Source: an uncultured Gammaproteobacteria bacterium | GTDB lineage: Bacteria > Patescibacteriota > Microgenomatia > UBA8517 | Direction: 5' to 3' | Assembly (NCBI GenBank): GCA_964600575.1 | Contig: CAZRJH010000004.1 | Span: forward strand, 70,711 to 134,710 | Length of the DNA stretch: 64,000 nucleotides | In this document: piece by piece, positions 1,745 through 22,373 of the stretch | Layout of the letters: every line of letters starts with the position of its first letter | How positions within the stretch are numbered: the stretch's first letter is position 1 | Notes under the pieces: model-generated | Databases searched by the model: none | Told to the model about the DNA's origin: nothing | The model's input: only the letters and a program-made list of their open reading frames with translations | Program-made: the position numbers and the translations under genes

Positions 1745-1748
1745 CCAA

Positions 1749-2984: not shown

Positions 2985-2990
2985 CAACTT

Positions 2991-4484: not shown

Positions 4485-4486
4485 AT

Positions 4487-5710: not shown

Positions 5711-6876
5711 AAATAAAAATAGATTATAAATTTGTTTTTGGAATCTTTTGGTCGGCATTTGTTTTTTGTTTGACAGGAATGCTGATTATTCTATTAACAA
5801 AGGATAGGTTTGGTATTAGTTCTAGATGCAGTTCTTTAAAAGAAGATGCCAAGAAGATCGAATGCTGGAAGAAAATAATTGACACGAACTTGGCAAGAGG
5901 AGATTTGGATGGCAGTATGAGCTTGGTTGCCGAGTTCTATCAAATAGATTCTGTTTTTGCTGCAAACTGCCATGATTTTACGCATTCTGTTGGTAAAAAA
6001 GCATACGAGCTGTTTTCTAAAGGTGTTAAATTCCAGGTCGGAAGTAAAACATCTTACTGTGCTTATGGCATCTATCACGGTTTTATGGAAAATCTTGTCG
6101 CCAAGAGCGGTGATATACAAACTGCTAGGGACTTTTGTAGGCAGGTGGATGCCGAGCTTTCTAAAACATCGCCGGGGGCAAAATTTGCCTGCTATCACGG
6201 AATAGGCCACGGTTGGACTAATGTGCACGATAGTAAATTTTCAGGGGATGAACTCGCTATTATTAAACCGTCCTTGGCACTTTGCGAAAAAGTAACAGAT
6301 GATTCGGAGGAGCTAAAAATATGTGCCACCGGTGTATTCGACTCAATTTCAATCGGTTATTACAACAAGATTAATAATCTAGTAATGAATAAAAAAGATC
6401 CGTATTGGTTGTGTAAACTTCAGAGCGATAAATACAAGCAGTCTTGTTATATGGATATATCACCGGCAGTTTTGTGGTTGGGTGATTACAATTTAGATAA
6501 AGCCTTGGCGTTTGTGGCGACTGTAGAACCAAAGTTTAGAAGTTTAGTAACTAAAACACTTTCAGAAGATTCGGTGAGATTCATATTACGGGATAGTAAA
6601 AATATTGAGACACAAATAGATATTTGTAGAAAAATGGGTGGTGAGATGTCGGGTATGTGTATTAAGGGTATCGCTCAAGGATATCTTCAGTTTGGGCCGC
6701 CAAAAGAAGAGGAGAGGTTGGCTTTGATTTTTTGCGGCAACAACTATTTAACAGAAAACGAGAAACAATTATGTTATGGACAGCTATCACAAAGCGTTAA
6801 AATAATTTTACCCGATGAAAGATATAAAGAAGCTTGTTCTAAGATACCGGAGCAATACCAAGAAGTTTGTATTTAA
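5704..6876 (+). CDS. Cys-His-rich repeat protein (family A, no cupredoxin domain)
   Basis: 390 aa with an N-terminal TM. CHDFTHSVGKKAY, CAYGIYHGF, CYHGIGHGW, CATGVFDS. Start overlaps the upstream stop (ATGGTAA). Confidence 0.8.
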   Translation: MVKIKIDYKFVFGIFWSAFVFCLTGMLIILLTKDRFGISSRCSSLKEDAKKIECWKKIIDTNLARGDLDGSMSLVAEFYQIDSVFAANCHDFTHSVGKKAYELFSKGVKFQVGSKTSYCAYGIYHGFMENLVAKSGDIQTARDFCRQVDAELSKTSPGAKFACYHGIGHGWTNVHDSKFSGDELAIIKPSLALCEKVTDDSEELKICATGVFDSISIGYYNKINNLVMNKKDPYWLCKLQSDKYKQSCYMDISPAVLWLGDYNLDKALAFVATVEPKFRSLVTKTLSEDSVRFILRDSKNIETQIDICRKMGGEMSGMCIKGIAQGYLQFGPPKEEERLALIFCGNNYLTENEKQLCYGQLSQSVKIILPDERYKEACSKIPEQYQEVCI

Positions 6877-7912
6877 AAAAGAAATATTGAAACATGTTTT
6901 GTTGACTCTGGGAATCAGCGCTTCGGTTTTTTTGTATGTAGCTGCAAAACCTTGGGATAAAAGCGATTGCAGAAGAAACATGAGATTGTACGGTTATAAG
7001 TTCTATCTGTCGTTTAATGAAGCTAAAAAACCGATTTTCCAGGTCCAAAACAACAACGACAAGTGCTATTACGAATTTTTTGAAGGAATACACAAAGCCT
7101 CGACCGTTTTTAGCCCAAACTATTCTAAGCTGGAGAAGGTTTGTTCATATATAAATAAGAGTTATCCCGTAAAAAGTTGGGACCAGTGCTATTTCAAAAT
7201 AGGCATAGCTTCAACCTACACCAAACGAGACACTGTTTATGATCTTCTGGATTTAGAAAAATTTATTGACAAACAAATTAAATTCTGTGAGAAATCAGGC
7301 AAACATGCCGGGGATTGTATTGTGGGTGTTTATACTGGGGTCAATTTGGCTTTTCAAAACAACGATAAAGATTCTGGATTCGGATTAATGAATGATCTGT
7401 TTTGGCCGTGCAAGACAGGCATGGGAAAAGCCTACAAGCTTCAGTGTTTCAGGGGCATGGTCTCGCTTTTATATGGATATACAAAAGGTGATTCAGCAAA
7501 AGCAAAGGAATTAATATTCGATAATCTTACAGACAAGTTTGAAAGGTTTGAGGTTACATTGACTTATTTTTCTAGTCTTGCGTATATAGACGAATATGAT
7601 CCCTATAAAGTTGCACGGCTTTGCACATCTATAGATGAAGGTTTTGTGAGATATGCTTGTATATTGGGTTATGCTACAGGGATTGACGAAGTTGCAGGAA
7701 ACGGCAATGAGGGCAAGGCTGTGGTTGATTTTTGTGTCAACGAATTGTTTTCGTTTAACGAAACAGGCGAATGTATAAGGCGAGGTTTTTTTGAACTACC
7801 CACAACTTGGAATATCGACTCTAAAAAGAAAATATGTTTGCAATTATCACCCATTAAATATAAAAACTATTGCGAGCTAAATATGGAAATGCCTAAAGCA
7901 GCTAAATTATGA
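6815..7912 (+). CDS. Secreted Cys-rich paralog, His-poor subtype (family C)
   Basis: The ORF as tracked overlaps the upstream gene by 62 nt. An in-frame TTG near 6884 would give the signal-like start (M)KHVLLTLGISASVFLYVAA, so the true start may be later. Motifs CYFKIGIASTY and CIVGVYTGVN are degenerate versions of the family A repeats. Confidence 0.7.
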   Translation: MKDIKKLVLRYRSNTKKFVFKKEILKHVLLTLGISASVFLYVAAKPWDKSDCRRNMRLYGYKFYLSFNEAKKPIFQVQNNNDKCYYEFFEGIHKASTVFSPNYSKLEKVCSYINKSYPVKSWDQCYFKIGIASTYTKRDTVYDLLDLEKFIDKQIKFCEKSGKHAGDCIVGVYTGVNLAFQNNDKDSGFGLMNDLFWPCKTGMGKAYKLQCFRGMVSLLYGYTKGDSAKAKELIFDNLTDKFERFEVTLTYFSSLAYIDEYDPYKVARLCTSIDEGFVRYACILGYATGIDEVAGNGNEGKAVVDFCVNELFSFNETGECIRRGFFELPTTWNIDSKKKICLQLSPIKYKNYCELNMEMPKAAKL

Positions 7913-8910
7913 GGAAATTATTAACTGCAACTGTTCTTTTAATGTTGAGTTTTATTTTTATTGACTTTTCCGTTGATTCTCATTCTCAGTATTGTACTTA
8001 TTTGAACAAATATTCGGGTTTTAGGTTTTATGTTTTAGATACGTTGGGTATAAAAAGCAATTTTCCCGGTTCCACAAAAGCTGAAAGTTGTAAATTGGCT
8101 TTTTATAGGGGAGTTTATGAAGGAAATAAAATTATACCCGGATACGAAAGATTAGATACGGTATGTAAAAAGATAAACGCCAACTCTGGTTACAGACTTT
8201 GGGATGTTTGTTATTTTAATTTGGGAATCTCGGTTTTGTACTACAGAAACAACGAGAATGTTAATAATCAAAATCTTGTTTTGGACACGGAAAGCGGTAT
8301 TCGTTTTTGTGGCGGTACATCTAACAAGTTGAGTTGTATCGCAGGTGTATTTACGGGAATCAATTGGTTTTTAACTGACAACCCGAAATATAAACCGATT
8401 CAAGAAAACCCCGTGTGGATTTGCCAATCTTTAAAATATCCCGATTATAAGTTGCAATGCATGCGAAACTTAATTTCTTATCTATACAGTTACTCGGGTG
8501 GTAATTTGGAAAAATCGTTACTAATAATTGAACAAAATTCATCGAACATCTTTGAAAAATATGAGGCTTCTCACACGTTGTTTTCTAGCTTAGCTTTTAC
8601 TGACGACTTTACCGAAGAAGCTGTCAAAAAGATTTGTGTCGACTACAAAGAAAGATGGTTAAAAATGGCTTGTGTTTCCGGATATGCAAATGGAATAACC
8701 GAGACTGCCGTAATCGGTACTGAGGCGAAACGTATTTTGAATTATTGCGGATCAAATATTTTTTCCTTTGAGGATAAAGCTGAATGTTACAGAAGAGCCT
8801 TTTCCGAAATTCCAGGTTTTGACAAAAAAGCTAACTGTTTGGTTAATGTGCCTGAAAATTTTAAACATGTCTGTCGTCTGGTAGAAGAAGTTGTCCCAGT
8901 ACCTCAATAA
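7909..8910 (+). CDS. Secreted Cys-rich paralog, His-poor subtype (family C)
   Basis: 333 aa with an N-terminal TM, similar to the 6815..7912 product (CYFNLGISVLYY, CIAGVFTGINW). Start is an ATGA overlap. Confidence 0.75.
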   Translation: MRKLLTATVLLMLSFIFIDFSVDSHSQYCTYLNKYSGFRFYVLDTLGIKSNFPGSTKAESCKLAFYRGVYEGNKIIPGYERLDTVCKKINANSGYRLWDVCYFNLGISVLYYRNNENVNNQNLVLDTESGIRFCGGTSNKLSCIAGVFTGINWFLTDNPKYKPIQENPVWICQSLKYPDYKLQCMRNLISYLYSYSGGNLEKSLLIIEQNSSNIFEKYEASHTLFSSLAFTDDFTEEAVKKICVDYKERWLKMACVSGYANGITETAVIGTEAKRILNYCGSNIFSFEDKAECYRRAFSEIPGFDKKANCLVNVPENFKHVCRLVEEVVPVPQ

Positions 8911-9977
8911 TGAAAAAAATAGTTTCACTTTTGATTTTGATTATCGGCATATTCTTGTATTTTTTTGGAGTTGGCAACAAAGAGTTTCAAAACAGGATTT
9001 TTACAAAGTGCAAAGAGGATAATTTCCCTAGAATTTGTCAAGAAAAAGAAGTGTCGGAAGTTTTACAAAAAAGAGGCACACATTTTGCATTTGTTGCCAC
9101 AGAATATCTTAAAAAGGCTGATCCCGAATTTGGGCCTTCTTGTCACGGCTTTGTTCATGGGTTGGGAGTTTCCGCGTATAAAATGATCCTAGAGGAAAAA
9201 AATGTTTTTGCTAAGCCTGTTTCCGCTTGTGATTATGGCTTTTATCACGGACTAATGATGGAGATTGCTATGCATTCAAGAGACGACAGAAATAAAGGAT
9301 TTGCCTTAGCCGACAAACTCTGTCAGCGGTTTTTCAAATTATCCAATAAAGATAACTCGATTTATTATCAATGTTATCATGGGATAGGGCACGGGCTTCC
9401 GTTGGCGATAACCGACTACAGACCGGAAAGCGTGGCGAGCGTCTTGGATCAAAGTCTCAAATACTGTGATGATTATTTTGACGGGAAAGAGTTTTGTAAG
9501 GTTGGTGTATATGGAGGGTTTGTTTCTTTTTTGACGGGTGAGCACAACTTGAGAATCGAAGGCTTTGAGGTTGATGATATGTTGGATATATGTTCCAGGC
9601 AAGACAGTTCAATGAAGCCATACTGTTACGAGATGGCAGCGCCAGCACTTTTGTTTTCGTTTGACGACAATGTATATAAATCAGTTGATGCTATGAATCG
9701 GGCAATTGCAGAGGACTCAGATAAAATATTGATGGCAAGGCAAATTGGACAGGCGATTCTAACTTATAAATATGACGCAACAGCACAGGACCTTAAATCT
9801 ATTTGTGGGAAAGTAAGCGGCAAAAGCCATTATAGTTGTATCGAGGGCTTTATGAACGCATTCCTAGATTCCAGGCCAGATAAAAATATTAAAAAAACCG
9901 CTGAAGTTTTTTGTAAATCCGCTAACTTTGACATCTTGGAAACAGAGTCTTGTTTAGGACCGCTCAAATATATATGA
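8910..9977 (+). CDS. Cys-His-rich repeat protein (family A)
   Basis: 355 aa with an N-terminal TM. CHGFVHGLGVSAY, CDYGFYHGLM, CYHGIGHGL, CKVGVYGGF. Confidence 0.8.
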   Translation: MKKIVSLLILIIGIFLYFFGVGNKEFQNRIFTKCKEDNFPRICQEKEVSEVLQKRGTHFAFVATEYLKKADPEFGPSCHGFVHGLGVSAYKMILEEKNVFAKPVSACDYGFYHGLMMEIAMHSRDDRNKGFALADKLCQRFFKLSNKDNSIYYQCYHGIGHGLPLAITDYRPESVASVLDQSLKYCDDYFDGKEFCKVGVYGGFVSFLTGEHNLRIEGFEVDDMLDICSRQDSSMKPYCYEMAAPALLFSFDDNVYKSVDAMNRAIAEDSDKILMARQIGQAILTYKYDATAQDLKSICGKVSGKSHYSCIEGFMNAFLDSRPDKNIKKTAEVFCKSANFDILETESCLGPLKYI

Positions 9978-11116
9978 AATTTCGATATATTGTTGCTCTC
10001 GTAGTGTTGTTTGTTTTGGCCCTCTCAGCTCTGATATCTAAAGGAAACGGAAATTTGGACAAACAAGTAGGTGAATGTGTGATTTTGCAAGGGAGTTCAA
10101 AAAATAACTGTGTTTTGGATCTGGTCAAAAATTTTACCGAAAAAGGAAAAATAAGCGAGTCGCTTTCATTTCTTAGAGCATACTCTTTAAGAGATTCTGA
10201 ATACTACGGAACTGATTGTCACGGGGCCGCGCATTTTATAGGTGATGCGGCCTACGGTTTATACAAGACTGGTAAATACACCGATTTCGGCAAAGACAGC
10301 AATGTATGTTCTTATGGCTTTTATCACGCTTTCACAAGCTCTTTTGTTGTTAGTGGAGATTTTACTAAAGTCGGAGATTTTTGCTTGGGTCTTGAGACAA
10401 AGAGCGATCAATCCGCGGTTGGATGTTATCACGGGATAGGGCATGGAGCTATATACGATTTTTTTGAAACTTATAAAATTAGAGACCCGCAAACAATCAT
10501 TAATAAAAGTGTCGCGTTGTGTCAAAAAATAATGCTAAACGAAAACGGGACGAGAGAATGTATTACAGGGGTTTACGACGGCATTGGAGATGAAGTTTTG
10601 GACCCTTCTTACACAAATCTGACTCCTACGATTATTTATTCTTACTGTAAAAATCAACCCGAGAAATACAAACCCAGTTGCTACGAAAACATATCGCATT
10701 TGGTTTTCCGTAAAACTCGGCTTGGATTCGAAAACTTGGTGAATTATGCAACAACAAAGATTGAGCCAGATTACAGAGAAAGTGCGGTTAAGGGTCTTGC
10801 AACGATTTATGTAGTTGATTTAAAGGGTGGGAACATTGAAGAAGGAGTCGGGATTTGTCTAAAGCTCGCCCCAAATATCTTGAGAGCTTGTATTAAAAAC
10901 ATGACTTACAAAATTGCTGCGGATATCGAAGACGGTTCTCAATACGAAGCGGTCAAAAATTTTTGTTACAAGGCGGTGTTTGCAGGGTCAAATAGAGATG
11001 TTTGTATAAATTCGGCTGTTGAAATATTAAGTGATTATTTTGACCCTGAAGAGTTGAAGGTGAGATGCTCAAAAGATACCGGAGAAGTGCCTAATTTGTG
11101 TAAGTTTGTTGAATAA
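9974..11116 (+). CDS. Cys-His-rich repeat protein (family A)
   Basis: The ORF track starts at 9950. ATG at 9974 forms an ATGA overlap with the upstream stop and gives MKFRYIVALVVLFVLALSAL. Motifs CHGAAHFIGDAAY, CSYGFYHAF, CYHGIGHGA, CITGVYDG. Confidence 0.78.
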   Translation: MKFRYIVALVVLFVLALSALISKGNGNLDKQVGECVILQGSSKNNCVLDLVKNFTEKGKISESLSFLRAYSLRDSEYYGTDCHGAAHFIGDAAYGLYKTGKYTDFGKDSNVCSYGFYHAFTSSFVVSGDFTKVGDFCLGLETKSDQSAVGCYHGIGHGAIYDFFETYKIRDPQTIINKSVALCQKIMLNENGTRECITGVYDGIGDEVLDPSYTNLTPTIIYSYCKNQPEKYKPSCYENISHLVFRKTRLGFENLVNYATTKIEPDYRESAVKGLATIYVVDLKGGNIEEGVGICLKLAPNILRACIKNMTYKIAADIEDGSQYEAVKNFCYKAVFAGSNRDVCINSAVEILSDYFDPEELKVRCSKDTGEVPNLCKFVE

Positions 11117-12115
11117 ATGAAATATAAAATGTTGTGGTTATTGATTAGTTTGGTAATTACCGTATTGGTTTTTTTGTTTTTTGGTAAGTTACTTTATAAA
11201 CCAATTCCTATTGGAAGTAATGTTATCGAAAATCAAAAACAACTTAAAAAAATAATTGATTCAAAAGGTATAAACGCCGCCTACAAATTTTTTAAAAACA
11301 ATTTTGTTAGGTATGACTCCGTTTCGAAACACTATGTGGGTCATTTCCTTGGACAGGAGGCATATAGAGTTTTGGGTGATGAAGGGTTGGAAATATGCGA
11401 CTTTGGTTTGGATTATGGTTGTATTCATGGGTTTGTAATCGCCGGAATCTCGGAAAAAGGTAATACATATGTAACTACGGCAATGAATCGGTGTTCGGGT
11501 TTTGAACCTGATGATGTTAGACGCGGAAGTTGTGTTCATGGAGTTAGTCATACTTTACTTTTTCTCAAAGGTTATAAAGATGCTGATTTAATTTGGGCTT
11601 TGTCCAAATGCGACGATATGTTGTCAGGCGATGAATATGTTGGGCCAAGAGGTTGCTACGAGGCTGTGTTTATGGAATACAACTTAAGAAATCTTGATGG
11701 ACGGTACACAGGAAAATGGTTTGAAACAAGACCTTTTGATTATAACAATCCGCTTGCACCGTGTGACCGCCTCGAACCCAAATACAGAGGATCCTGTTAT
11801 TCAGAACTGGGTTCAATGTGGTCTAACAATATCGGTACAGATTTTGACAAAATGGCCACTTTTTGTAGCCTTATAAAAAGCAAAGAAGACGGAAGATCCT
11901 GCTTCTGGGGAATTGGAAGGTCGATGGCGGATGATTACAATTTTGATTACCGTAAGGTTGTAGATACCTGCGAGCGAGTATCCGGGGATTATTACGCTTC
12001 CTGCATTACCGGCGCTGTGGTTGTCTTAAGCAACAACGGGGTAAGCGCTTCGGTTGAAATATGTGAGACTTTAGAAGATGATGAGATTCTGAGTTGTAAA
12101 AGTCTTTTTAAATAA
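11117..12115 (+). CDS. Divergent Cys-His-rich repeat protein (family A-like)
   Basis: 332 aa with an N-terminal TM. VGHFLGQEAY, CDFGLDYGCIHGF, CVHGVSHT, CITGAVV. The same repeat pattern but more diverged. Confidence 0.72.
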   Translation: MKYKMLWLLISLVITVLVFLFFGKLLYKPIPIGSNVIENQKQLKKIIDSKGINAAYKFFKNNFVRYDSVSKHYVGHFLGQEAYRVLGDEGLEICDFGLDYGCIHGFVIAGISEKGNTYVTTAMNRCSGFEPDDVRRGSCVHGVSHTLLFLKGYKDADLIWALSKCDDMLSGDEYVGPRGCYEAVFMEYNLRNLDGRYTGKWFETRPFDYNNPLAPCDRLEPKYRGSCYSELGSMWSNNIGTDFDKMATFCSLIKSKEDGRSCFWGIGRSMADDYNFDYRKVVDTCERVSGDYYASCITGAVVVLSNNGVSASVEICETLEDDEILSCKSLFK

Positions 12116-13842
12116 TGCCACTTCAATCTAAGTTTTCCGCTAGAAACATTCTTATATTTTTAGTACCTGTGTTTTTGTGTTTCCTATTTTTAATACCGAT
12201 ACTATTTTCGTCAGGAAAAACGGGAGTTATAGATTGGGATCAGAATATGGCCTGGAATGAATTTAATAGAGTCTCCTTATTAAAATATAAACAAATACCG
12301 TTTTGGAATCCGTATAGATGCGGAGGTATCCCTCATTTTGCCGATCCCCAAATAGGTTTAATATCAATCCAAACACCGCTGGTGTTAATATTTGGGACCC
12401 AAACAGGTTTAAAAATAAGTATATTTGTTCATTTGATTTTGGGGTTTTGGGGGGCTTACTTGCTGTTTAAAAAACGTGGGATTTCTGATATTTCTTCTTT
12501 TTATATTTCCATGCTTTTTGCGTTTAACGGTATAACCGCCTCCTTTTTGTGGGCGGGTATGTTGGTCTTTTTAAACTTTGCCTATATACCTTTTGTTTTG
12601 TATTTTATCGATAAAAAAGATATTAAAAGCCTAATTAAGGCAGGGGTAATTTTTGCCCTGTCATTTTATTATGACTACCACATCCCTTTACTTTTTTCTC
12701 CATACATAGTTTTCCAGGTGGTGCGACTATTTTATCCCTACGGAATTTTGAACATTGTTAAGAAGTTGGCTCTGTTTGTATTTGTATTTATTTTGTTTTC
12801 GTTCCCTAAACTTATACTTTCCCTGGAGTTGTATTCCAACTTTCGTAGAGTTGTCGAAAATCCTTACGGTTATCGGATTGGCAACTTGATACATAATTTA
12901 ATATCTCCAAGCCAGCCTTTGTATGAATTAAATAACGGCGGCGGGCTGGTTGGGGCAGATGAAAAATCAATATATCTTGGAATAATTCCGCTATTATTTA
13001 TTCTGTTTTTGCCTTTGCTTAAAAGAGGTCCAAAAAAGTATATTGTCCTAATTTTATTAGAACTCATTGTCTTTGTTTGGATTTCTATGGGTTCCAAGAT
13101 AAATCCATCTCTTTATGAAATCTTAAAAATTGTTCCGTTTTACGAATCTTTGAATATGGCAGAAAGATTCCGATTTGTGTTTATGATCCCTCTTTTGATG
13201 TTAATTGGTTTTGGGTTTAGTAGTTTCCTGGGTGGGTTTAAGGGGATTCTAAAGCCGCTTATGGCGGGACTCATTATAGCATCCACGTTCATAGATATTG
13301 TTATTTTTTCAAGAAACAATTTTTTAAACAATTCGCTTGTAATATCTCAAAAAAATGTTGGATATTCGGGAGGGCCTTATCGCCAAATCTTTTCGGAAAA
13401 TGATGATTATAAATACTTTAAATACTCACAAAGTTGGTTAGAACACAATTCCGACGCAGTTCAATTTTTGAAACCATGGTCTTATGAATATGAATATCTC
13501 AAAAGTGAGATTGGGGTAATCGACTGTTACTCTCCTTTTGGTGGCACAGAGTCTGTTAAGGGTGCTAATCAGAACGGGTACAAAGGGGAGTGGTATTTGG
13601 AAAAAAACAAAGGAACGATCAAGTTATTGTTTTGGTCTCCAAATAGGGTATTGATTAAGGTTGATATGCCCAAAAAAGAAAACGATGTATTAATTTTGAA
13701 TCAGAGTTATTTTAAAGGCTGGAAAATATTGGTAAACGGGAATAAGGTGACGCCTGAGAGTACATCAGGACTTATCTCTGTCAAGATCAACGAAAATTCC
13801 CATGTCGTTGATTTTGTTTATAACCCGTTTCTTTTTCGTTAG
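12115..13842 (+). CDS. Polytopic membrane protein, YfhO/GT-C-like putative glycosyltransferase
   Basis: 575 aa with at least 10 hydrophobic helices. The N-terminal loop (WDQNMAWNEF...FWNPYRCGGIPHF) resembles the YfhO-family N-terminus. Family assignment rests on pattern resemblance only. Confidence 0.6.
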   Translation: MPLQSKFSARNILIFLVPVFLCFLFLIPILFSSGKTGVIDWDQNMAWNEFNRVSLLKYKQIPFWNPYRCGGIPHFADPQIGLISIQTPLVLIFGTQTGLKISIFVHLILGFWGAYLLFKKRGISDISSFYISMLFAFNGITASFLWAGMLVFLNFAYIPFVLYFIDKKDIKSLIKAGVIFALSFYYDYHIPLLFSPYIVFQVVRLFYPYGILNIVKKLALFVFVFILFSFPKLILSLELYSNFRRVVENPYGYRIGNLIHNLISPSQPLYELNNGGGLVGADEKSIYLGIIPLLFILFLPLLKRGPKKYIVLILLELIVFVWISMGSKINPSLYEILKIVPFYESLNMAERFRFVFMIPLLMLIGFGFSSFLGGFKGILKPLMAGLIIASTFIDIVIFSRNNFLNNSLVISQKNVGYSGGPYRQIFSENDDYKYFKYSQSWLEHNSDAVQFLKPWSYEYEYLKSEIGVIDCYSPFGGTESVKGANQNGYKGEWYLEKNKGTIKLLFWSPNRVLIKVDMPKKENDVLILNQSYFKGWKILVNGNKVTPESTSGLISVKINENSHVVDFVYNPFLFR

Positions 13843-13885
13843 TTTTTGTTGCTAAGACTACTTAAAATATCTATTATGATAATGT

Positions 13886-14482
13886 ATGGAAAACGGCACA
13901 GGGGGAGTTCCTGTTATTCCCACAGATCAACCCAATCAGACTATACCTGAAGGCAATATTCCTGAAGTAAAAACTATAGAGACAGATACAGGTCAGTTTC
14001 AGGAGGAGCAAACTCCGTTTTATAAAGAGTTTAGTTTTTGGATTTTGATTTTGCTGGTTTTTTTCTTTGTCGGAATAATACTTTTTTGGGCGCTGCCTTT
14101 ATTTAAACCGCCATTTAAGGCAAGCGTAGTCATGGAGGGGGGTCAAGTTAGACTGAAGGTAGAAAACTTGAGTGTAACAAAGATAGGGTATATAGTAGTC
14201 CGTAGAGTCGTTAACGGATTGCCTGATGCCTTGGTAGAAGTAAGTACTCAAATTTTGCCGGATGATTATGAGCTTTTTTTTGTACCGCTCTCCTTTGGTC
14301 CAGATACGACACCCGAAAAATACTACCAGGATCTTGTGGGTTCGGAACTTAGGATAGACTATTTTACGGATTTGAATAGCGATAACATGTATACCAAAGA
14401 GATCGACACAGAAATTCTGAAGGACGCCGGCGGAGGCAAAAGGAGCGTCAACTTGATTAACGGAACATCCGAACAAAAATGA
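13886..14482 (+). CDS. Small single-pass membrane protein, unknown function
   Basis: 198 aa with one TM (FWILILLVFFFVGIILFWALPLF) and a C-terminal soluble domain. Confidence 0.5.
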   Translation: MENGTGGVPVIPTDQPNQTIPEGNIPEVKTIETDTGQFQEEQTPFYKEFSFWILILLVFFFVGIILFWALPLFKPPFKASVVMEGGQVRLKVENLSVTKIGYIVVRRVVNGLPDALVEVSTQILPDDYELFFVPLSFGPDTTPEKYYQDLVGSELRIDYFTDLNSDNMYTKEIDTEILKDAGGGKRSVNLINGTSEQK

Positions 14483-15012
14483 GACACTTATATTTTACCC
14501 TGAGATTGTTAGTCTTTGTTTCAGTTTTCATTTTTTGTTTTTCATCTGCAGATGGTGTGTTTGCTCACGGTACTGCACAGAGCTTTCCAAAAGATATCGG
14601 CCAGTACACGGTGGAGCTTGAGTATGACGCACTTGGCATTTTTGATGACACCACGGAGCCTTTGGTTTTTAGGCTATTAGACCAAAAGTCAAAAGAACCC
14701 GTAAAATTTAGTGCTCTTTTGGTTAGACTTGAAAGAAAGGATGACAAATCTACCACTTTTGTGGTAAGACTTTCCCCGGATGACTTCCTAGACGGTGTAG
14801 GAAGGATGACTGCCATGCTAAATAGAGGTGATTATCTAATTACTTTGATCTTTTACGGTGGGGAGAATCGACTGGTCGAGGCGGAGTACGATTTAACTGT
14901 GCAAAAGGGATCGGCTAGCGACTTTCCAGTAATTCCTGTTGTATCAGGTGTTTTGGGTGCTGTTGCCGGTTTTGTAGTAGGGAGGCTAAAAAAGACCTCT
15001 CATGAAAAATAA
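14479..15012 (+). CDS. Secreted protein with signal peptide and C-terminal TM anchor
   Basis: 177 aa. N-terminal signal peptide (LLVFVSVFIFCFSSADGVFA) and a C-terminal hydrophobic helix followed by a basic tail (GRLKKTSHEK). Start is an ATGA overlap. Confidence 0.5.
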   Translation: MRHLYFTLRLLVFVSVFIFCFSSADGVFAHGTAQSFPKDIGQYTVELEYDALGIFDDTTEPLVFRLLDQKSKEPVKFSALLVRLERKDDKSTTFVVRLSPDDFLDGVGRMTAMLNRGDYLITLIFYGGENRLVEAEYDLTVQKGSASDFPVIPVVSGVLGAVAGFVVGRLKKTSHEK

Positions 15013-16588
15013 AGTTACAATTGCTTCATTGGTTTTTATACTTCTAGTTGGTTTGTTTCTAAGATTATTCAACTTATCTGGGAGGTTTATATTCGGAGTC
15101 GATCAGGCGGAAGATATGTATAAGTTCGAAGAAATAGCAGTAAACATTTTATCCGGTAACTTTAACAGACTTCCGCTTGTGGGTGAGCCGGGGACATATT
15201 TTGGCGATAAAATAGCCTTGAATGACAATTACCCTGTTTACTCGGGTGTGATGTTTTTGTATTTTATAACACCTTTTGCTTTATTATCACAATTTGATCC
15301 GCAAATACTGATATATTCCTTTGCTCTTTTTAATTTATTTGGAGTGATATTAATTTATTTGGTGACAGAAAAAATATTCGGAAGTAGGGCTGGTATTATT
15401 TCTTCAATTCTTTATTCAGTAAATTTCTATATGTTAGTTTATTCAAGGGCAATCTGGACACCGAGCCCGATTCCAATACTTTTCCTTATAACTCTTTATG
15501 TATTAATGCTTGTTTCTATAAACGGAAGATTTAAATTGATTCCTTTGCTTATGTTTTTGGTGGGATTAATTTCACAGTTTCATGATTCGGGTTATATATA
15601 TTCGGCGTTTTTTTTAGTAGTCATTCTGTTTTCTAGAGTTCCCGTCTTTAAAAAAGAATTTTTGTTTAAATCGATATTCTTTGGAACACTACCTTTGGTG
15701 CCAACAATTCTTTATGAGATAAAAACAGGGTTTACTCTAGTTGGTACCATCCTGTCTTCATTGGTTAGTGATCATTCTTCTGTTGGGGGAAACTTTCTTT
15801 ATGAGGGCTTAAAAAAATTCTGGGAGTTTGCTGTTTCTGCAAATTTGCCGTTATATTTCAATAATTATTACAAGCAAATCTTAGGTAACGCATATTTAGC
15901 CTTTATGCTTTTGTTTTCGGCAATAACTTTTGCGTCGTTAATTCTTCCTGTGTTTTTTAATAAAAATAGATTTGTTAAAGTTTTGTTCCTGGTTTTTACA
16001 ATTGTCTTTTTGGGTGTACCGTTGGCGGCAAAAATATATTACAGAGATAACTACTTTGGCCTTTATCCGCTTTTTGGTACAACTTTCTCGGTTCTTGGAG
16101 CAATACCCTTTATGATAATTGCATTTTCGGGTGCGTTGAACTTTTTAGCAGAAAAATTTAAAAAAGTTGGTAGTCTTTTGACTTTGGCAATTCTGGTCTT
16201 CTTGGTAGTTACACAGATCAAGATGTCTTGGGGCAATGTGATAAATAACGGAGACAAAAAATACGATTATGGAGATAAATTTGCTATAGCAAATGCTTTG
16301 GGAACCGAAGTAAAAGGAACAGGATATGCTTTAGAGTATGCGGACGACCAAAGTTATGCCGAAGGTTATGAATTTTTTTATATTTTAGAAAAAGCTAAAG
16401 CACCACCTCCATACAGCTATAACGGAAAGACGAGTAAGGCTACCTTATTCCATAAATATGAATTTGGTAACAAAAACCCTGAAGCTGTTTTTGCAATAGC
16501 GGGTAAGAATAATTGGGGCCAATTTAATGTCCCTGGTTGGAATCAGGTTCATGAGTCGGGCCACTTTAGATTGTACAGGAAGTTGTGA
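15002..16588 (+). CDS. GT-C fold membrane glycosyltransferase (ArnT/PMT-like, GT39/GT83-type)
   Basis: 528 aa with at least 11 TM helices. The first extracytoplasmic loop carries an acidic DxxED motif (GVDQAEDMYKFEEIA), typical of ArnT/PMT-type GT-C enzymes. Confidence 0.6.
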   Translation: MKNKVTIASLVFILLVGLFLRLFNLSGRFIFGVDQAEDMYKFEEIAVNILSGNFNRLPLVGEPGTYFGDKIALNDNYPVYSGVMFLYFITPFALLSQFDPQILIYSFALFNLFGVILIYLVTEKIFGSRAGIISSILYSVNFYMLVYSRAIWTPSPIPILFLITLYVLMLVSINGRFKLIPLLMFLVGLISQFHDSGYIYSAFFLVVILFSRVPVFKKEFLFKSIFFGTLPLVPTILYEIKTGFTLVGTILSSLVSDHSSVGGNFLYEGLKKFWEFAVSANLPLYFNNYYKQILGNAYLAFMLLFSAITFASLILPVFFNKNRFVKVLFLVFTIVFLGVPLAAKIYYRDNYFGLYPLFGTTFSVLGAIPFMIIAFSGALNFLAEKFKKVGSLLTLAILVFLVVTQIKMSWGNVINNGDKKYDYGDKFAIANALGTEVKGTGYALEYADDQSYAEGYEFFYILEKAKAPPPYSYNGKTSKATLFHKYEFGNKNPEAVFAIAGKNNWGQFNVPGWNQVHESGHFRLYRKL

Positions 16589-16633
16589 CTTGACAGTGTT
16601 ATTTAGCTGGTGTTGAATAAACTAGATTAGAGC

Positions 16634-17020
16634 ATGAACAAAAAAACTTTCTTGGTGGCATTGGTAGTAATTGTTTTTTTTGTCGGTTACTTCATTTATA
16701 AAAATTATTTTTCGACACCACAAAGCAGATTTGTAAATCTGAGCGCAGAAAATGTCGTTAAAATGGGTGAAGATTCATACGCACCCGTTGATTTCGAAGT
16801 TAAAAAAGGAACAAAAGTCAGATTTGTTAACGAATCGGGCACCTTAAGGTGGCCCGCAAGTGACTTACATCCTTCTCATTTGATATATCCGGAATTTGAT
16901 TCCAAAGAACCTGTTAAAAACGGTGATTCTTGGGAGTTTGAGTTCGACAAAGCAGGCGAATGGAGTTATCATGATCACCTGGCCCCATATATAACAGGTA
17001 CAATCAAAGTATCGGAATGA
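16634..17020 (+). CDS. Stand-alone cupredoxin-like domain protein (membrane-anchored)
   Basis: 128 aa. N-terminal TM, then VRFVNESGTLRWPASDLHPSH...GEWSYHDHLAPYITGTIKV, the same domain that is fused at the N-termini of the 236 and 2991 ORFs. Confidence 0.8.
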   Translation: MNKKTFLVALVVIVFFVGYFIYKNYFSTPQSRFVNLSAENVVKMGEDSYAPVDFEVKKGTKVRFVNESGTLRWPASDLHPSHLIYPEFDSKEPVKNGDSWEFEFDKAGEWSYHDHLAPYITGTIKVSE

Positions 17021-18195
17021 AATCAAACCCAGCGTTTATTTTGAGATTCTTGGTACTTTCGTTTTTGGCAATATTCATTATTTTTTTTCCTTTGAGAAGT
17101 TTGATTGGGGGAGAGTTTGTAAGAATGCGGTATTCAAAATGTTCTAGTCTCACTCAATCCAAAGATAAAACAATCTGCCAAAGAAAATCAATTAAAAGCG
17201 CTGTCTATATAGGGAATGTTTCTGTTGCGGTGCAACTTTTCCAAAAATCAATTCGCAACAACGATGAGGACTGTCACTCGCTAGGGCATCAAGTTGGCAG
17301 AGACTTCTATGAAATTTTTAGAAGATACGGGTTTGTAAGAATAAACGCTCCATTATCCGAATGCGGATATGGTTTCTGGCATGGTCTAATGACAGGGTTT
17401 GGAGAAGATTCCGTGTCTGGCCTTGTCGATATTGATCTCAAAAAAGTTTGCCCTACCATATTGGGCAAACGATCAAACATTTATGATGTTTGTTACCATG
17501 GTTTTGGTATCGGTTTCGTAGGTGATCCTCCCAAAATTGAGTATTGGGGCAACCCCCAACCCTTAATTCAAAATGCCAGCGAGAAATGTTTTGAAGTTAC
17601 ACAAAATCCGCTATACCTCGAACAATGTTATTCGGGAGTGTTTCATCAAACTATTGGCTATATGCAGAACAATGAATATAAATTTTCTTTTCCTGATCAA
17701 AATGAATTATCTGGTTTTTGCGGTAAGTTTGGTGCAGACAAGATTAAGCCATGCATAGAACAATTGGGGCCCGTGATGACGGTTGTTCTTTCGCAAGATG
17801 TTCCCAAAATTGTGGCTTATATAAAAAGCAAATTTGGATGGTTGGACACAGAGACAAAGCTTCGTCTTTTGCAAACAGTAGTGGGTGGAGCAGTCCATTT
17901 AAATAACGACGACGACACAAAAAAAGCAATGGTTTATTGTTTTGGTTTAGAAGAAAACGAGGTGAAAAGTTGCCTTGTCGGCGTTTTTGGAGGTGTAAAA
18001 ACCAAAACCAGAGACGGTGATGTTGCAGCCTTAGATTATTTAATTGATCTTTGTAATCAAAAAGAAATTTCAGAGGATAATCAAAAAAAATGTACCGATT
18101 TTTTGGTGAGCTCGGTAAAAGACCCGATACTACATGCGGAAGTTTCTAAAGCATGCGGTTCGAAAAAAGCACTAAAAGTTTGTAACTTACTGTGA
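17017..18195 (+). CDS. Cys-His-rich repeat protein (family A)
   Basis: 392 aa with an N-terminal TM. CHSLGHQVGRDFY, CGYGFWHGLM, CYHGFGIGF, CYSGVFHQ. ATGA overlap with the upstream cupredoxin gene. Confidence 0.78.
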   Translation: MKSNPAFILRFLVLSFLAIFIIFFPLRSLIGGEFVRMRYSKCSSLTQSKDKTICQRKSIKSAVYIGNVSVAVQLFQKSIRNNDEDCHSLGHQVGRDFYEIFRRYGFVRINAPLSECGYGFWHGLMTGFGEDSVSGLVDIDLKKVCPTILGKRSNIYDVCYHGFGIGFVGDPPKIEYWGNPQPLIQNASEKCFEVTQNPLYLEQCYSGVFHQTIGYMQNNEYKFSFPDQNELSGFCGKFGADKIKPCIEQLGPVMTVVLSQDVPKIVAYIKSKFGWLDTETKLRLLQTVVGGAVHLNNDDDTKKAMVYCFGLEENEVKSCLVGVFGGVKTKTRDGDVAALDYLIDLCNQKEISEDNQKKCTDFLVSSVKDPILHAEVSKACGSKKALKVCNLL

Positions 18196-19392
18196 GTTTA
18201 CAAAATTCTTAATCTCTAAAGAGACCTTCGCAACATCCTTCTCATTCATGCTTTCATAAACAGGTAATGCAATACTATCTTTAATTGCCTTTGCTACTTG
18301 GGAATTTTTGGACCCTGTAAGGTTGTCTGCGATTTCATCCGCAAGGGCAATGTCGATTCCTTTTTTGGCAAGATATCGCCTTAATAAAAAGATATCAAAT
18401 TTGCAGTGAGCCAATATCATATAAAAAGAAGGGCTGTTTCCTCTTTGGATTTTTTGGAAAGTGACTATATTTTTAAGGTTTTGTACATATAGACCATGGA
18501 TTCTTCGGCGTTTTTCCAGTCTTTTTATAAAAGTAGGAATATTCATCCTGACAACCCGTGCATAAACTGAGGGTAAGCTGTAAAAGATCTTATCGTCTTC
18601 GCCTTGTCGGTAAGCCTTTACAAACATTCTTTGCCACTTTTTGTATCCAAATATATACATCATTAAATACCACATCGGAGTTTGAATTAGAAAATAACCC
18701 ACAAGCGCTTTCGTTATTTCGGAAAGGGTGGAAAGACTTGAGCCGTTGTTTCCTGTTGCCCTTGTCTTGATAAGCTTAATAATTTTTGTATTCCTGCCGA
18801 ATACAACGCCGCCCCTAATTCCTTGTAGCGGTTTAGAAATATCAAAACTGGAAAAGGCAATGTCTCCAAAGGTGCCGATCAACTTTCCGTTTAAAGTTGA
18901 ACCCAGTGCCTGTGCGCAGTCTTCTATTAGTAATATTTTTTTCGAACTGGCCGCCTTCTTAATCTTTTGAATATCGCAGGCAACTCCAAATAAATGTGTT
19001 GCTAGTATTGCTCCCGTGTTTTTATTGATTGCCTTACTAAGACTTTTGATATCGATTTCGTAGGTGTTGTAATCTATATCAACCGGTCGAGGAATATAAC
19101 CGGCAAGTTTTATAATCTTAGTGAGTGTTCCAAATGTATAGGCGGGTATTATCACCTCTTTACCTTTTGCTATTCCTGAGGATTCCAAAATTAGTTTCAA
19201 ACCCGACCTCCCTTGGCCAACCACTACGGGGTTGGGGAGTTTGAGATATAGTCTTAGGTCTCTCGTTAGCCTTTCCAACTCGTCATGTTTGACCGTTAAA
19301 TCAATTATTTTGTCTAAAGTTTTCGGGTGAAAGTAAGGTTTTCTTCTGGGAATCATAGTAAATTTAGTTTCTCGAGTCTTATCCTGATGCAA
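18187..19392 (-). CDS. DegT/DnrJ/EryC1/StrS-family PLP-dependent sugar aminotransferase
   Basis: 401 aa. ...IPAYTFGTLTKIIKLAGYIP...AILATHLFGVACDIQKI...LLIEDCAQALGS...FSSFDISKPL (PLP-lysine motif SxxxxK). Confidence 0.82.
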   Translation of the reverse strand: MHQDKTRETKFTMIPRRKPYFHPKTLDKIIDLTVKHDELERLTRDLRLYLKLPNPVVVGQGRSGLKLILESSGIAKGKEVIIPAYTFGTLTKIIKLAGYIPRPVDIDYNTYEIDIKSLSKAINKNTGAILATHLFGVACDIQKIKKAASSKKILLIEDCAQALGSTLNGKLIGTFGDIAFSSFDISKPLQGIRGGVVFGRNTKIIKLIKTRATGNNGSSLSTLSEITKALVGYFLIQTPMWYLMMYIFGYKKWQRMFVKAYRQGEDDKIFYSLPSVYARVVRMNIPTFIKRLEKRRRIHGLYVQNLKNIVTFQKIQRGNSPSFYMILAHCKFDIFLLRRYLAKKGIDIALADEIADNLTGSKNSQVAKAIKDSIALPVYESMNEKDVAKVSLEIKNFVNSQ

Positions 19393-20114
19393 CTAGTCAT
19401 ATACTCAACCGAGTCTCGGGCAAAATGTTTGATATATTTAGGGTTAAGGGAAATTTTTGATGTACCTTTGGTTCTGGGTTTAAAGTCGGTTTTAAACTCG
19501 TAGATCTTATCTGTCAGCTCTGAAGATGCATATATCAAATAATTAAAAAAACTAAATCCTTTGGGGAACCTTGAGAAGTCTAACTTTTTAACAACATTGT
19601 TAACATTTAGAGCCTTATAGGCGCTGTTGTGATCTTCTACCAGAGTAACACCTGCAACTATTTTTGCAAATAAGTCATTTGCTAAAAAATGAATCAGTAG
19701 TCTGTATTTTGGCCAGGATGATAGATTGGTTATACGTCTACTACCTGCAACCACATCCCATCCTGAGTCCAGTTTTTTAAGTATTTTGGGAATTTCCTTT
19801 GGACTATAAGAAAAGTCTGCTTCGTTTGTAACAACATAGTCTGCACTTAACTTTTTTTGAGCATAGACGAGACCTCTAATCACTGCTGCCCCCAGACCTT
19901 CTTTTTTACCTGAAAGAAGGATTATTTTGCGGTTTTTGGATGATATTTTTTTTACAATATCGCCGGTTCCGTCGGGGGATGTGTCGTCTACAACCAGAAT
20001 TTTATATTCGTATTTGGTTAACTTTTTAAATATTGAGTCTACAAGAGCTAGCATATCCTTAATGTTTTCCGACTCGTTGTAAGTGGGGATTATATATACG
20101 ACTCTTTTTTTCAT
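19353..20114 (-). CDS. Family 2 glycosyltransferase (Dpm1/polyprenyl-phosphate sugar synthase-like)
   Basis: 253 aa. VYIIPTYNESENI...YKILVVDDTSPDGTGDIV...GKKEGLGAAVIRGL, the classic GT2-A DxD architecture. Confidence 0.88.
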   Translation of the reverse strand: MKKRVVYIIPTYNESENIKDMLALVDSIFKKLTKYEYKILVVDDTSPDGTGDIVKKISSKNRKIILLSGKKEGLGAAVIRGLVYAQKKLSADYVVTNEADFSYSPKEIPKILKKLDSGWDVVAGSRRITNLSSWPKYRLLIHFLANDLFAKIVAGVTLVEDHNSAYKALNVNNVVKKLDFSRFPKGFSFFNYLIYASSELTDKIYEFKTDFKPRTKGTSKISLNPKYIKHFARDSVEYMTSCIRIRLEKLNLL

Positions 20115-20497
20115 TGTGGTGTGTATGGGCCTTGTTTTATTTCTAGTATTCTTGTTTGTTTACTGAATGTTACAGAATGAATTACTTCCATAATTAAAAC
20201 CCCGTCATTCTTTTTTAGAATATGTTTAGATATCATCTTTTTATCTTTAGAATAAAAAGTTATTTTAAGGCTTCCTTTAAGGATTATCAAAATTTCGTAC
20301 ACAGGCAATCTATTAAGTGTTTTTATGGCTTTATGAAAATGCGGTTCGTTGCTCTTCGCGGCGGTTGATTTGTGGAACCCTAGTTGTAAAAAAGATTCGA
20401 TTGGTGTTAAAAAATATGAATTTTGTTTATCCGGAAACCCTCTAAATATTAGCGCAATTTTCTTTTTTTTGTGTAAGACAACCTCTTCTTTATACAT
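20111..20497 (-). CDS. Small cupin-fold protein, WxcM/FdtA-like sugar ketoisomerase candidate
   Basis: 128 aa. HFHKAIKTL...EILIILKGS resembles the HAHK...CLNGS core of FdtA/WxcM-type cupins. The match is weak. Confidence 0.45.
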   Translation of the reverse strand: MYKEEVVLHKKKKIALIFRGFPDKQNSYFLTPIESFLQLGFHKSTAAKSNEPHFHKAIKTLNRLPVYEILIILKGSLKITFYSKDKKMISKHILKKNDGVLIMEVIHSVTFSKQTRILEIKQGPYTPQ

Positions 20498-20514
20498 TCA
20501 AGCTGAATTATATA

Positions 20515-21240
20515 TTAATTTTTTTGAGCCAAGACTATTACTGATGTGCCAAATGGAAAGTTGATATATTTAAACAAATAGGCCTCCAAGTTGATAATCC
20601 ACAAGAATATTGTATTTATAATTTTGTTTGTTTCGAATACATCAGAGGTTTCGGATTTAAACAGATTGTCTAATATTCTCCTTTTTAATAGTACTACAGG
20701 GAATAGTGACATAAAGATATAACTGGACCTTACTATCTTAAAGTTTTGAGAAAGAATTATTTTTTCCATATCACTTTTTGTATAGCGTGCTTTTCCTTGA
20801 GTTGCTATGTCGTGGTTTCCTGCAAGAAAGGGGAATGCGGAGTCGGTTATTAAAAGATATCCTTCTCTTTTTAGTACCTTAAATGCATTTTTAATTACCG
20901 TTCGCTCATCACTTATATTTTTATGATAAAGAACATCAAAAATTGTTATTAGGTCAAACTTCGGTTTTTTAAAAGGAATTCTGTCAACCGAACTTATGAG
21001 TACTTTTAATCCTCTTTTTCTTGCTAAATTAGCCGAATATCGGGATTTTTCTATACCTGTAACATTCCCAAACCTTGTAAGATGTTTAGTTAAGCCACCA
21101 GTACCCGAGCCTAAATCTAAAATTTTTGCGTCTTTTTTGACTAAATCGGAAAGTATTTGATTTATAAAAAACCTTTTACCGATGAACCAGAAATGTTTGT
21201 CTTCTACCCTGGCCATCATTTCGTATTCTCTTTTTTTCAT
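20515..21240 (-). CDS. Class I SAM-dependent methyltransferase
   Basis: 241 aa. Motif I ILDLGSGTGGLTKHL, motif II/post-I LITIFDVLYH, motif III REGYLLITD. Confidence 0.85.
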   Translation of the reverse strand: MKKREYEMMARVEDKHFWFIGKRFFINQILSDLVKKDAKILDLGSGTGGLTKHLTRFGNVTGIEKSRYSANLARKRGLKVLISSVDRIPFKKPKFDLITIFDVLYHKNISDERTVIKNAFKVLKREGYLLITDSAFPFLAGNHDIATQGKARYTKSDMEKIILSQNFKIVRSSYIFMSLFPVVLLKRRILDNLFKSETSDVFETNKIINTIFLWIINLEAYLFKYINFPFGTSVIVLAQKN

Positions 21241-21346
21241 AGTTAAAATTATATCATTAGCCTCAGTTTGTGTATTTTTTATATATAATAAGTCCGATAA
21301 TAAGCCTAAATATTTTTATTATGGATAAAATATTTGTTTATTTTTA

Positions 21347-22303: not shown

Positions 22304-22373
22304 TTTAAAAAATTCAATATATCGAATATACGAATATGTTAATATTTCAAGTTAAACCTTGGAGGAAGCCAAG

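Follow-up and report, generated by a model that had tools for sequence, protein, structure and literature searches.

The 64,000-nucleotide stretch of contig CAZRJH010000004.1 analysed here (the window), which comes from a bacterium assigned to the Patescibacteriota, contains two genes for large polytopic membrane proteins, A (12115..13842, plus strand, 575 amino acids, aa) and B (15002..16588, plus strand, 528 aa), embedded in an operon for exported Cys-rich proteins. Both proteins are very probably glycosyltransferases of the GT-C type, A being a short YfhO-like enzyme and B a PMT_2-type (ArnT-like) one. The existence of an extracytoplasmic glycosylation system which depends on a lipid carrier is well supported, and A and B probably work in it together with a glycosyltransferase of family 2 (GT2) encoded nearby (19353..20114, minus strand, 253 aa). 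The best overall explanation, which we put forward tentatively and at a little under an even chance, is a lipid-carrier GT-C system whose acceptor is most likely one or more surface proteins encoded in the same gene cassette.

A and B are real genes, since full-length homologues of their products (33–50% identity over both families) occur in independent metagenome assemblies. Their open reading frames (ORFs) coincide exactly with the two polytopic membrane proteins proposed in an earlier note on this DNA. Hydropathy analysis distinguished about 9–10 segments in each protein, and both AlphaFold models consist of 11 transmembrane (TM) helices and a C-terminal soluble domain, which is a beta-sandwich in A (predicted local distance difference test, pLDDT, 82; predicted TM-score, pTM, 0.87) and a small alpha/beta domain in B (pLDDT 75, pTM 0.80). 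Searches of the PDB by sequence, with A, with B and with the profiles of their families, gave no meaningful match, and the fold comparison alone was successful. All Foldseek matches to PDB structures at E ≤0.02 for A and at E ≤0.05 for B were GT-C enzymes; at E ≤1e-3 there were 16 matches for A and 18 for B, all of them GT-C, with TM-scores of 0.36–0.49. The best match of A was AftD (2.9e-5), followed by STT3/AglB/PglB, ALG12, AftA and Pmt4. The matches of B included STT3A (5e-6), PglB (2.2e-5) and ArnT (5ezm, 3.7e-4), and also AglB and ALG12/9. Between the A and B families, hhalign revealed a distant homology (probability 95%, E 2.9e-8).

Both enzymes carry a conserved acidic motif in the first outer loop. 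In A, it is D40-W41-D42 (DXD), with no variation at D40 and W41 and at least 90% conservation at D42. In B, it is D34-Q-A-E37-D38 (DxxED, within 'GVD34QAE37D38MYK'). The motif follows TM1 in both proteins. In the alignment of 40 diverse members of the B family, the D34 position is occupied by D or E in 39 sequences and the D38 position in 36, and R149, W152, Q192, H194, E239 and Y347 are other conserved residues of the outer face. When the helices of the models are used, a topology of 11 TM helices, the N-terminus inside and the C-terminus outside, suits both proteins: Lys and Arg make up 24% of the inner loops and 8% of the outer loops of A, and the corresponding values for B are 40% and 8.5%. 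By the positive-inside rule, the first loop on the extracytoplasmic side is thus the predicted site of the acidic motif in both proteins. The DxxED motif that the earlier note had pointed out in the first loop of B is in agreement with this. The same note had named the absence of any GT-C match, combined with a cytoplasmic acidic loop, as fatal to its proposal; given the GT-C fold matches and the predicted outer position of the motifs, the opposite was found.

As judged from its sequence relatives, A is a short and distant relative of YfhO, with detectable homology and without strict Pfam membership. A phmmer search of 5.8 billion sequences with A reached bona fide YfhO proteins of 780 aa (E 1.6e-11 to 3e-7), which score 81–100 bits on the YfhO profile PF09586. 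This profile is matched at E ≤0.01 by 8 of the 22 members of the A family. The closest relatives of A reach 26.3–27.3 bits, colinear with profile positions 98–390 and under the gathering threshold of 28.5 bits; A itself gave no Pfam or NCBIfam match at E ≤1 and hence stays below the PF09586 membership threshold. B, on the other hand, passes the threshold of Pfam PMT_2 (PF13231; 29.2 vs 26.1 bits, E 1.2e-6), its residues 83–237 being aligned to positions 4–159 of the 160 profile positions, and its homologues carry precomputed PF13231 annotation. The earlier description of the two proteins as YfhO-like and ArnT-like candidates was therefore apt: A is homologous to YfhO and B passes the PMT_2 threshold.

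Narrower identities were considered and rejected. Membership of A or B in the GT39 Pmt family was ruled out, since neither protein gave a Pfam match to PF02366 (PMT), MIR or PMT_4TMC at E ≤1. Among the Foldseek matches, structures of Pmt have low ranks for A (E ≥0.011) and do not appear in the top 50 for B. As neither enzyme is a GT39 Pmt, the comparison with the actinobacterial Ppm1/Pmt pair drawn in the earlier note is an analogy of logic and not of family. The identity of B as an ArnT (GT83) equivalog was ruled out as well. No NCBIfam model, the ArnT equivalog included, was matched by B at E ≤1, an hhalign comparison of the B family with E. coli ArnT gave no significant match (E 0.085, 35 columns), and the resemblance is found at the fold level alone. 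B was also considered as a divergent oligosaccharyltransferase, because STT3, PglB and AglB are among its top fold matches, yet the WWDYG motif is not conserved and neither A nor B gave a Pfam match to PF02516 (STT3). The sequence 'KYDYG' (420–424) of B is confined to its close subfamily; D422 is present in 10 of the 40 family members and the Trp residues of WWDYG are absent. Finally, B is not a member of the Agl23 family (TIGR03663), which it does not match; its distant relatives reach 18–29 bits against a cut-off of 126.25. As a separate observation, the pattern 'K-[YF]-D-Y-G-[DN]-K' (B residues 419–426) lies right after the last TM helix, a position that recalls WWDYG. It does not vary among the six homologues closest to B (A2), and in the 11-sequence alignment A5 it is mostly kept.

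The GT2, whose minus-strand gene lies 2.8 kb downstream of B, is, by its sequence matches, a polyprenyl-phosphate sugar synthase of the Dpm1/ArnC/GtrB type, which is in accordance with the Dpm1-like gene that had been noticed about 3 kb downstream on the other strand. It matches PF00535 with 86.7 bits (2.2e-24). Its best PDB match is the dolichol-phosphate mannose synthase of P. furiosus (5mlz, 2.5e-24, residues 4–231), followed by ArnC and GtrB, and PgfS, ArnC, AglJ and PpgS are at the top of its NCBIfam ranking, all under their cut-offs. The enzyme presumably makes the lipid-linked donor for B and A. Next to it are genes which may supply a modified sugar: a DegT/ArnB-family aminotransferase dependent on pyridoxal phosphate and acting on nucleotide sugars (18187..19392, minus strand; PF01041, 5.3e-47; NCBIfam sugar-aminotransferase models matched below their cut-offs), a methyltransferase dependent on S-adenosylmethionine with a hydrophobic C-terminal extension (20515..21240, minus strand; Methyltransf_11, 9.5e-15) and, between the methyltransferase and the GT2, the small conserved protein u128 (20111..20497, minus strand), for which no TM helix was found by hydropathy and no significant match in Pfam or the PDB. 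That both an aminotransferase and a methyltransferase are encoded here speaks against plain mannose as the transferred sugar. A dimethylamino-sugar pathway like that of FdtA/TylB/TylM1, made up of u128, the aminotransferase and the methyltransferase, was dropped because u128 resembles no known isomerase and the matches of the methyltransferase are generic.

The genomic context was compared by running hidden Markov models of the individual components against the ORFs of all fetched loci. Members of the close B subfamily were present in the window and in loci L005, L006, L007, L008, L013 and, partially, L015, and all seven loci of this subfamily share the same gene order: an array of Cys-rich paralogs, s1, s2, B, a gene for a cupredoxin-like protein and a further paralog. 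In the window, these are the array p1–p10 of ten tandem exoproteins with an N-terminal anchor (236..12115), s1 for a single-pass membrane protein of 198 aa (13886..14482), s2 for an exported protein of 177 aa (14479..15012), B, the gene for a membrane-anchored cupredoxin-like protein of 128 aa (16634..17020) and the eleventh paralog (17017..18195), all on the plus strand. The cupredoxin-like gene immediately follows B in every locus that extends past B. The s1 gene occurs in all seven B loci and is absent from both arrays that lack B (L012 and L014); it thus strictly co-occurs with B. One short extra B locus was found by the metagenome scan and two by the genome scan. A convergent operon with a giant gene, the methyltransferase, (u128), the GT2 and the aminotransferase is present in four loci (the window, L007, L008 and L013), with u128 conserved in L007 and L008 at 36–60% identity. 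In one lineage of Patescibacteria, a GT-C of the B type has become an integral part of a cassette for surface proteins.

The history of A is different. A is absent from the cassettes of L005–L008, L013 and L015 and is a lineage-specific insertion in the cassette of this genome. The treatment of A and B as a single module in the earlier note therefore did not hold: B is fixed in 7/7 loci and A is found in this cassette only, and synteny rejects a co-evolving A–B pair. In L003 (8468..11728), an A homologue directly follows a methyltransferase (36.5% identity) and a GT2 in a polysaccharide locus. Distant B-family genes have comparable partners in L018 (5753..10523), where a tandem pair (26% identity) is divergent from a GT2 and a methyltransferase which is a full-length homologue of that in the window (29% identity, E 1e-33). 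These arrangements suggest that a methyltransferase, a TM-less GT2 and a GT-C form a recurrent functional unit, a trio undescribed so far, in unrelated loci of the Patescibacteria type; the substrate of its methyltransferase may be either the sugar or the lipid intermediate.

A plausible route can be drawn up from these components. The aminotransferase, the methyltransferase and u128 would modify a nucleotide sugar, probably by amination and possibly also by methylation, and at the inner membrane face the GT2 would load this presumed substrate onto polyprenyl phosphate. Once flipped to the other side, the lipid-linked sugar would be transferred by B to an extracytoplasmic acceptor; the inserted A may do likewise in this genome. 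The candidate acceptors are a Pro/Thr-rich juxtamembrane linker of giant surface protein 1, u318, s1 and the paralogs. That the acceptor is a protein of the cassette is a possibility to which we would give less than an even chance. It is nevertheless the likeliest choice, because B is translationally coupled to s1 and s2 and locked in an operon for exported proteins and the donor genes are co-operonic with the giant gene. By analogy with known systems, O-glycosylation of the giant or the Cys-rich proteins is plausible. A more specific version, in which the close B subfamily and s1 constitute a dedicated protein glycosyltransferase and the giant protein, and/or u318 and the Cys-rich exoproteins, receive a methylated amino sugar from the products of the co-operonic aminotransferase, methyltransferase and GT2 genes, appears rather unlikely to us.

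Giant surface protein 1 (giant1, 23591..40564, minus strand, 5657 aa) is encoded by the first large gene of the minus-strand operon; giant surface protein 2 (giant2) is encoded at 50397..63632 on the plus strand. Both begin with about 78 residues without a signal peptide, followed by a single TM segment at 79–97. The giant proteins contain 14.6–16.1% Thr and 24–28% Ser plus Thr (14.6 and 24.3%, respectively, in giant1), and no Pfam domain was found in giant1. Its residues 104–143, next to the membrane, form a linker rich in Pro, Thr, Ser and Ala, the sole segment of this kind among the exported proteins of the locus that were scanned. The protein u318 (21347..22303, minus strand), encoded between the giant gene and the sugar genes, is secreted and Cys/Ser/Thr-rich: it has a signal peptide, 21.7% Ser plus Thr and 5.7% Cys, is also rich in Asn and Gly and contains the motifs DADGWP and DVDADGYG. 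Its homologues are encoded in L005 (13153..14160), L008 (17567..18499) and L007 (16168..16689) with 45–53% identity. It is another candidate glycosylation acceptor. The N-terminal tail of s1 was considered as an acceptor and dropped, because the charge distribution does not decide the topology of s1.

Several results weigh against a protein acceptor in the cassette or against the proposed system as a whole. The earlier note had called the giant proteins extremely Thr/Ser-rich; they are Thr-rich indeed, and 'extremely' is too strong, since 40-aa windows with at least 50% Ser plus Thr do not occur in giant1 and only two occur in giant2. From their composition (Thr, Gly, Ala and Asn), they read as repetitive structural proteins rather than mucin-like ones. 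The paralogs have an ordinary content of Ser plus Thr (10–14%), and the scan found no Pro/Ser/Thr-rich linker in them. The part of the earlier proposal which spoke of dedicated O-glycosylation of surface proteins thus agrees with the enzyme classes and with the synteny of B with the array and of the GT2 with the giant gene, and disagrees with the composition of the paralogs as Ser/Thr-rich acceptors. The GT2 has no TM segment by hydropathy, unlike CsbB and GtrB, which carry TM helices. No Pfam match to a flippase of the GtrA/GtcA/ArnEF type was found among the ORFs scanned at 11117–23612; its gene may be located elsewhere. The L005 cassette has kept u318 and the giant gene and lacks the adjacent sugar genes and the GT2 operon. 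In the more distant arrays L012 and L014, three paralogs are accompanied by one s2-like and one cupredoxin-like gene, and both s1 and B are missing. The core of the cassette is thus formed by the paralogs, s2 and the cupredoxin-like protein, to which s1 and B are an accessory pair. Two of the four A homologues examined elsewhere lie in polysaccharide loci (L003 and L011), and the others, in L009 and L010, are in unrelated contexts. The methyltransferase/GT2/GT-C trio also occurs in envelope-glycan contexts without an exoprotein array or a giant gene. The bacterial YfhO and ArnT enzymes characterised so far act for the most part on teichoic acids or lipid A (PMC5836110).

Many of these points fit a near-equal rival explanation, which we regard as possible and still well short of an even chance: the system would modify an envelope glycan or lipid. 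In the manner of the Arn or CsbB/YfhO systems, a glycopolymer of the cell wall, a polymer similar to teichoic acid or a lipid of the membrane would be decorated with an amino sugar that may be cationic, and the position among surface-protein genes would reflect co-expression of envelope functions. The occurrence of the paralog core without a GT-C speaks for it, as do the PMT_2/ArnT-like nature of B and the matches of the aminotransferase and the GT2 to the ArnB and ArnC models, although equivalog matches to ArnT, ArnB and ArnC are absent or far under the cut-offs. The roles of YfhO that have an experimental basis include the glycosylation of lipoteichoic and wall teichoic acids, as described in two studies (PMC5836110, PMC8035078). 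The A homologues P0004 and P0016 are located in loci with Wzy, GT4 and flippase genes, and the distant B-family genes of L018 are accompanied, besides the GT2 and the methyltransferase, by UppP, GH130 and Glf, with no exoprotein array nearby. On the other hand, the close B subfamily was found inside the exoprotein cassette only (7/7) and translationally coupled to s1 and s2, the giant protein shares its operon with the sugar genes in four loci, and no glycopolymer synthesis genes were found among the Pfam matches in the window.

Two other explanations concern the role of B itself. According to one of them, which we consider improbable, B serves in the manner of Agl23, flipping the polyprenyl-phosphate sugar supplied by the GT2 or passing it on, and the transfer is carried out by A in this genome or by an unlinked GT-C in the others. 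Agl23 of Haloarcula, whose partner is the Dpm1-like Agl22, translocates lipid-linked glycans in purified form (PMC11182771). Weak matches to TIGR03663 in 9 of the 40 wider B-family members and the failure to find a dedicated small flippase near the cluster would agree with such a role. They are outweighed by the low scores against this model described above, by the outer-face residues of the catalytic GT-C type retained in B (D34, D38, R149, H194 and E239) and by the absence of a second GT-C from most cassettes. The other explanation, in our opinion very improbable, takes B as a structural or assembly part of a metal-handling (copper?) exoprotein complex with vestigial glycosyltransferase chemistry. 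The sequence hallmarks of the neighbours (the Ala-His junction of s2, the four His of the cupredoxin-like protein and the CxHGxGH motifs of the paralogs) and the insertion of B and s1 between s2 and the cupredoxin-like gene point in this direction, whereas the residues of the catalytic type are strongly kept across the 40 diverse family members and the adjacent GT2 operon is itself conserved. Moreover, we know of no non-catalytic PMT_2 protein, which we count against this explanation.

The closest parallels to a lipid-carrier GT-C system with a surface-protein acceptor come from streptococci, in which the YfhO-type GT-Cs PgtC2 and PgfM1, together with the GT2s GtrB and PgfS, O-glycosylate Ser/Thr-rich regions of surface proteins; PgtC2 and PgfM1 have a DXD motif in an extramembrane loop, and the adhesins that serve as substrates are encoded in the pgf cluster as well (PMC12041528). 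The cassette resembles the Pgf (PgfS/PgfM1/PgfM2) and GtrB/PgtC2 systems in the combination of a GT2 with a YfhO-type GT-C, in the predicted extracytoplasmic DXD motif, in the clustering with genes of large surface proteins and in the presence of two GT-Cs in one locus. In contrast to the Pgf proteins, A has 575 aa instead of about 800 aa and is below the Pfam threshold, and B is of the PMT_2 type and not a YfhO. The locus has an aminotransferase and a methyltransferase and no epimerase, and its host is a patescibacterium and not a firmicute. The acceptor candidates here, with the exception of the 40-aa linker of giant1, are without long Ser/Thr-rich disordered regions, and the system is known from its genes alone.

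A similar mechanism, with a GT2, a sugar on C55-phosphate that is flipped and an extracellular YfhO-type GT-C, was described for CsbB/GtcA/YfhO of B. subtilis and Listeria in two papers (PMC5836110, PMC8035078). In contrast to it, neither a GtrA/GtcA flippase nor teichoic-acid genes were seen in the window, and the context is that of exported proteins. The ArnB/ArnC/ArnT set is mirrored by a DegT aminotransferase, an ArnC-like GT2 and a PMT_2/ArnT-like GT-C within 5 kb. Homologues of ArnA, ArnD and ArnEF are lacking, however, no Arn equivalog cut-off was reached and the C-terminal domain of B is small and different from that of ArnT. Lipid A is not expected in a monoderm bacterium of the Candidate Phyla Radiation (CPR). 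The actinobacterial Ppm1/Pmt pair shares the TM-less Dpm1-like GT2, the GT-C with an acidic motif in loop 1 and exported proteins as the presumed targets, and the relation is at the level of the GT-C clan only. In the haloarchaeal Agl22/Agl23 system, a Dpm1-like GT2 is likewise combined with a PMT_2-like polytopic protein which uses or flips hexose-phosphate-dolichol (PMC11182771); this system is archaeal and, as stated, B does not match the Agl23 model. In mechanism, the locus resembles the three-component systems GtrA/B/C, CsbB/GtcA/YfhO, ArnC/EF/T and Pgf.

The remaining proteins of the cassette are unusual in themselves. The earlier note had mentioned two small anchored proteins between A and B, and these correspond to s1 (TM segment at 49–67) and s2 (C-terminal TM anchor). 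The N-terminal tail of s1 is acidic, rich in Pro, Thr and Gln, and contains no Lys or Arg before the FYK motif; a C-terminal domain follows the TM segment, and the s1 orthologue in L005 has a weak precomputed match to DUF2141. The signal peptide of s2 ends in an invariant Ala-His pair (A29 and H30 in all nine sequences of alignment A6), and His is thus the predicted N-terminal residue of mature s2. No Pfam match was found for s2, and a weak PDB sequence match was to filamin/Ig-like structures. Its predicted architecture resembles that of the mono-histidine-brace copper proteins YcnI and CopC. The cupredoxin-like protein reaches 26.5 bits on Pfam Cupredoxin_1 (threshold 27), and its family profile matches amicyanin (8.2e-7), whose Cys92 and Met98 correspond to Asp and Ile here. 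The protein is thus without the Cys and Met ligands of type-1 copper, and His79, 82, 113 and 115 are kept in at least 9 of 10 sequences (WPASDLHPSH...YHDHL). To judge by these residues, the domain may harbour a new kind of metal site. A cupredoxin-like domain is also fused N-terminally to the paralogs p1 (236..1744) and p3 (2991..4484).

The eleven paralogs have 332–502 aa and are 15–21% identical to p10, which was taken as the reference. Common to them are 12 invariant Cys and motifs of the types CH..H..G, CxYGFxHG and CYHGIGHG (alignment A3). No Pfam match was found for the paralogs, and their profile had no match in the PDB. Arrays of 3–11 copies are conserved across genomes. The paralog records with names or titles belong to Patescibacteria/Paceibacterota, with one metagenome-assembled genome labelled Gammaproteobacteria. 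The contig of L007 (CAZRGC010000002.1), titled 'uncultured Gammaproteobacteria bacterium', carries a complete cassette of the Patescibacteria type with a B of 48% identity, and this bin is probably mislabelled or chimeric. In L012, a GT2 gene (6544..7215, minus strand) is located divergently upstream of the paralog/s2/cupredoxin block and a gene for a DsbA-like thioredoxin downstream of it, which hints that glycosylation, disulfide formation and the paralog family are linked more deeply than through B.

The plus-strand operon comprises 16 genes (236..18195), of which the eleventh paralog is the last. The genes are tightly packed and most junctions are overlaps or gaps of a few bases: there is an overlap of 1 nt between the tenth paralog's stop and the start of A, of 4 nt between the s1 stop and the s2 start, of 11 nt between s2 and the start of B and of 4 nt between the cupredoxin-like gene and the start of the eleventh paralog. 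The minus-strand operon has the order giant1, u412, u318, methyltransferase, u128, GT2 and aminotransferase, also with several overlaps, and it is convergent with the plus-strand operon, the two overlapping by 9 nt. The u412 gene (22374..23612, minus strand), seen in this window only, overlaps the stop of the giant1 gene by 22 nt. It encodes a polytopic membrane protein with six TM segments predicted by hydropathy and an acidic stretch 'DFDTIREDTWRDY' after TM1. The hhalign comparison with the B family (E 4e-4, probability 35%) was colinear (B 56–236, u412 60–230), and u412 may, to go by this alignment, be a third, degenerate GT-C-like protein which is co-operonic with giant1. A 175-aa ORF just upstream of giant1 (40571..41098, minus strand) matches Phage_int_SAM_1 at 1.3e-10. 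By eye, the N-terminus of giant1 may be similar to a SAM-like domain of integrases and that of giant2 to a MerR-type helix-turn-helix. The other genes of the window code for leucyl- and arginyl-tRNA synthetases, ComEA/ComEC and giant proteins. This gene content, along with the names on records of homologues ('Patescibacteria group bacterium', 'Candidatus Paceibacterota'), assigns the window to the CPR/Patescibacteria. The GC content of the window is 35–45%, with about 44–45% in the giant genes and about 37% in the rest. A scan of the locus for promoters and terminators gave results at or near the level of chance.

Patescibacteria (CPR) are mostly uncultured episymbionts, whose giant surface proteins are presumed to serve in attachment to the host and in which the building and modification of the cell surface are barely known. 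No description of the cassette or of protein glycosylation in CPR was found in the literature searches made, and to our knowledge no protein-glycosylation system has been described in this radiation. As new members, the enzymes join GT-C families already known, and the novelty lies in the context: a distinct PMT_2 subfamily is permanently embedded, together with its partner s1, in a cassette specific to Patescibacteria, which converges on a giant-protein operon with the genes for donor synthesis. The conserved and wholly uncharacterised cassette of Cys-rich paralogs, a protein with an N-terminal His and a cupredoxin-like protein lacking the Cys ligand may be of interest in itself. The locus is a concrete testable candidate, since it consists of few genes (the GT2, B and optionally A) with defined candidates for catalytic residues and acceptors. 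If the acceptor were an envelope polymer or lipid, the cassette would contain an ordinary three-component glycosylation system. If it were a protein, lipid-carrier-dependent O-glycosylation by PMT_2/YfhO-type GT-Cs would extend to CPR, and, should the rather unlikely reading of B and s1 as a dedicated protein glycosyltransferase prove true, B would be a bacterial PMT_2-type enzyme which acts on proteins instead of lipid A.

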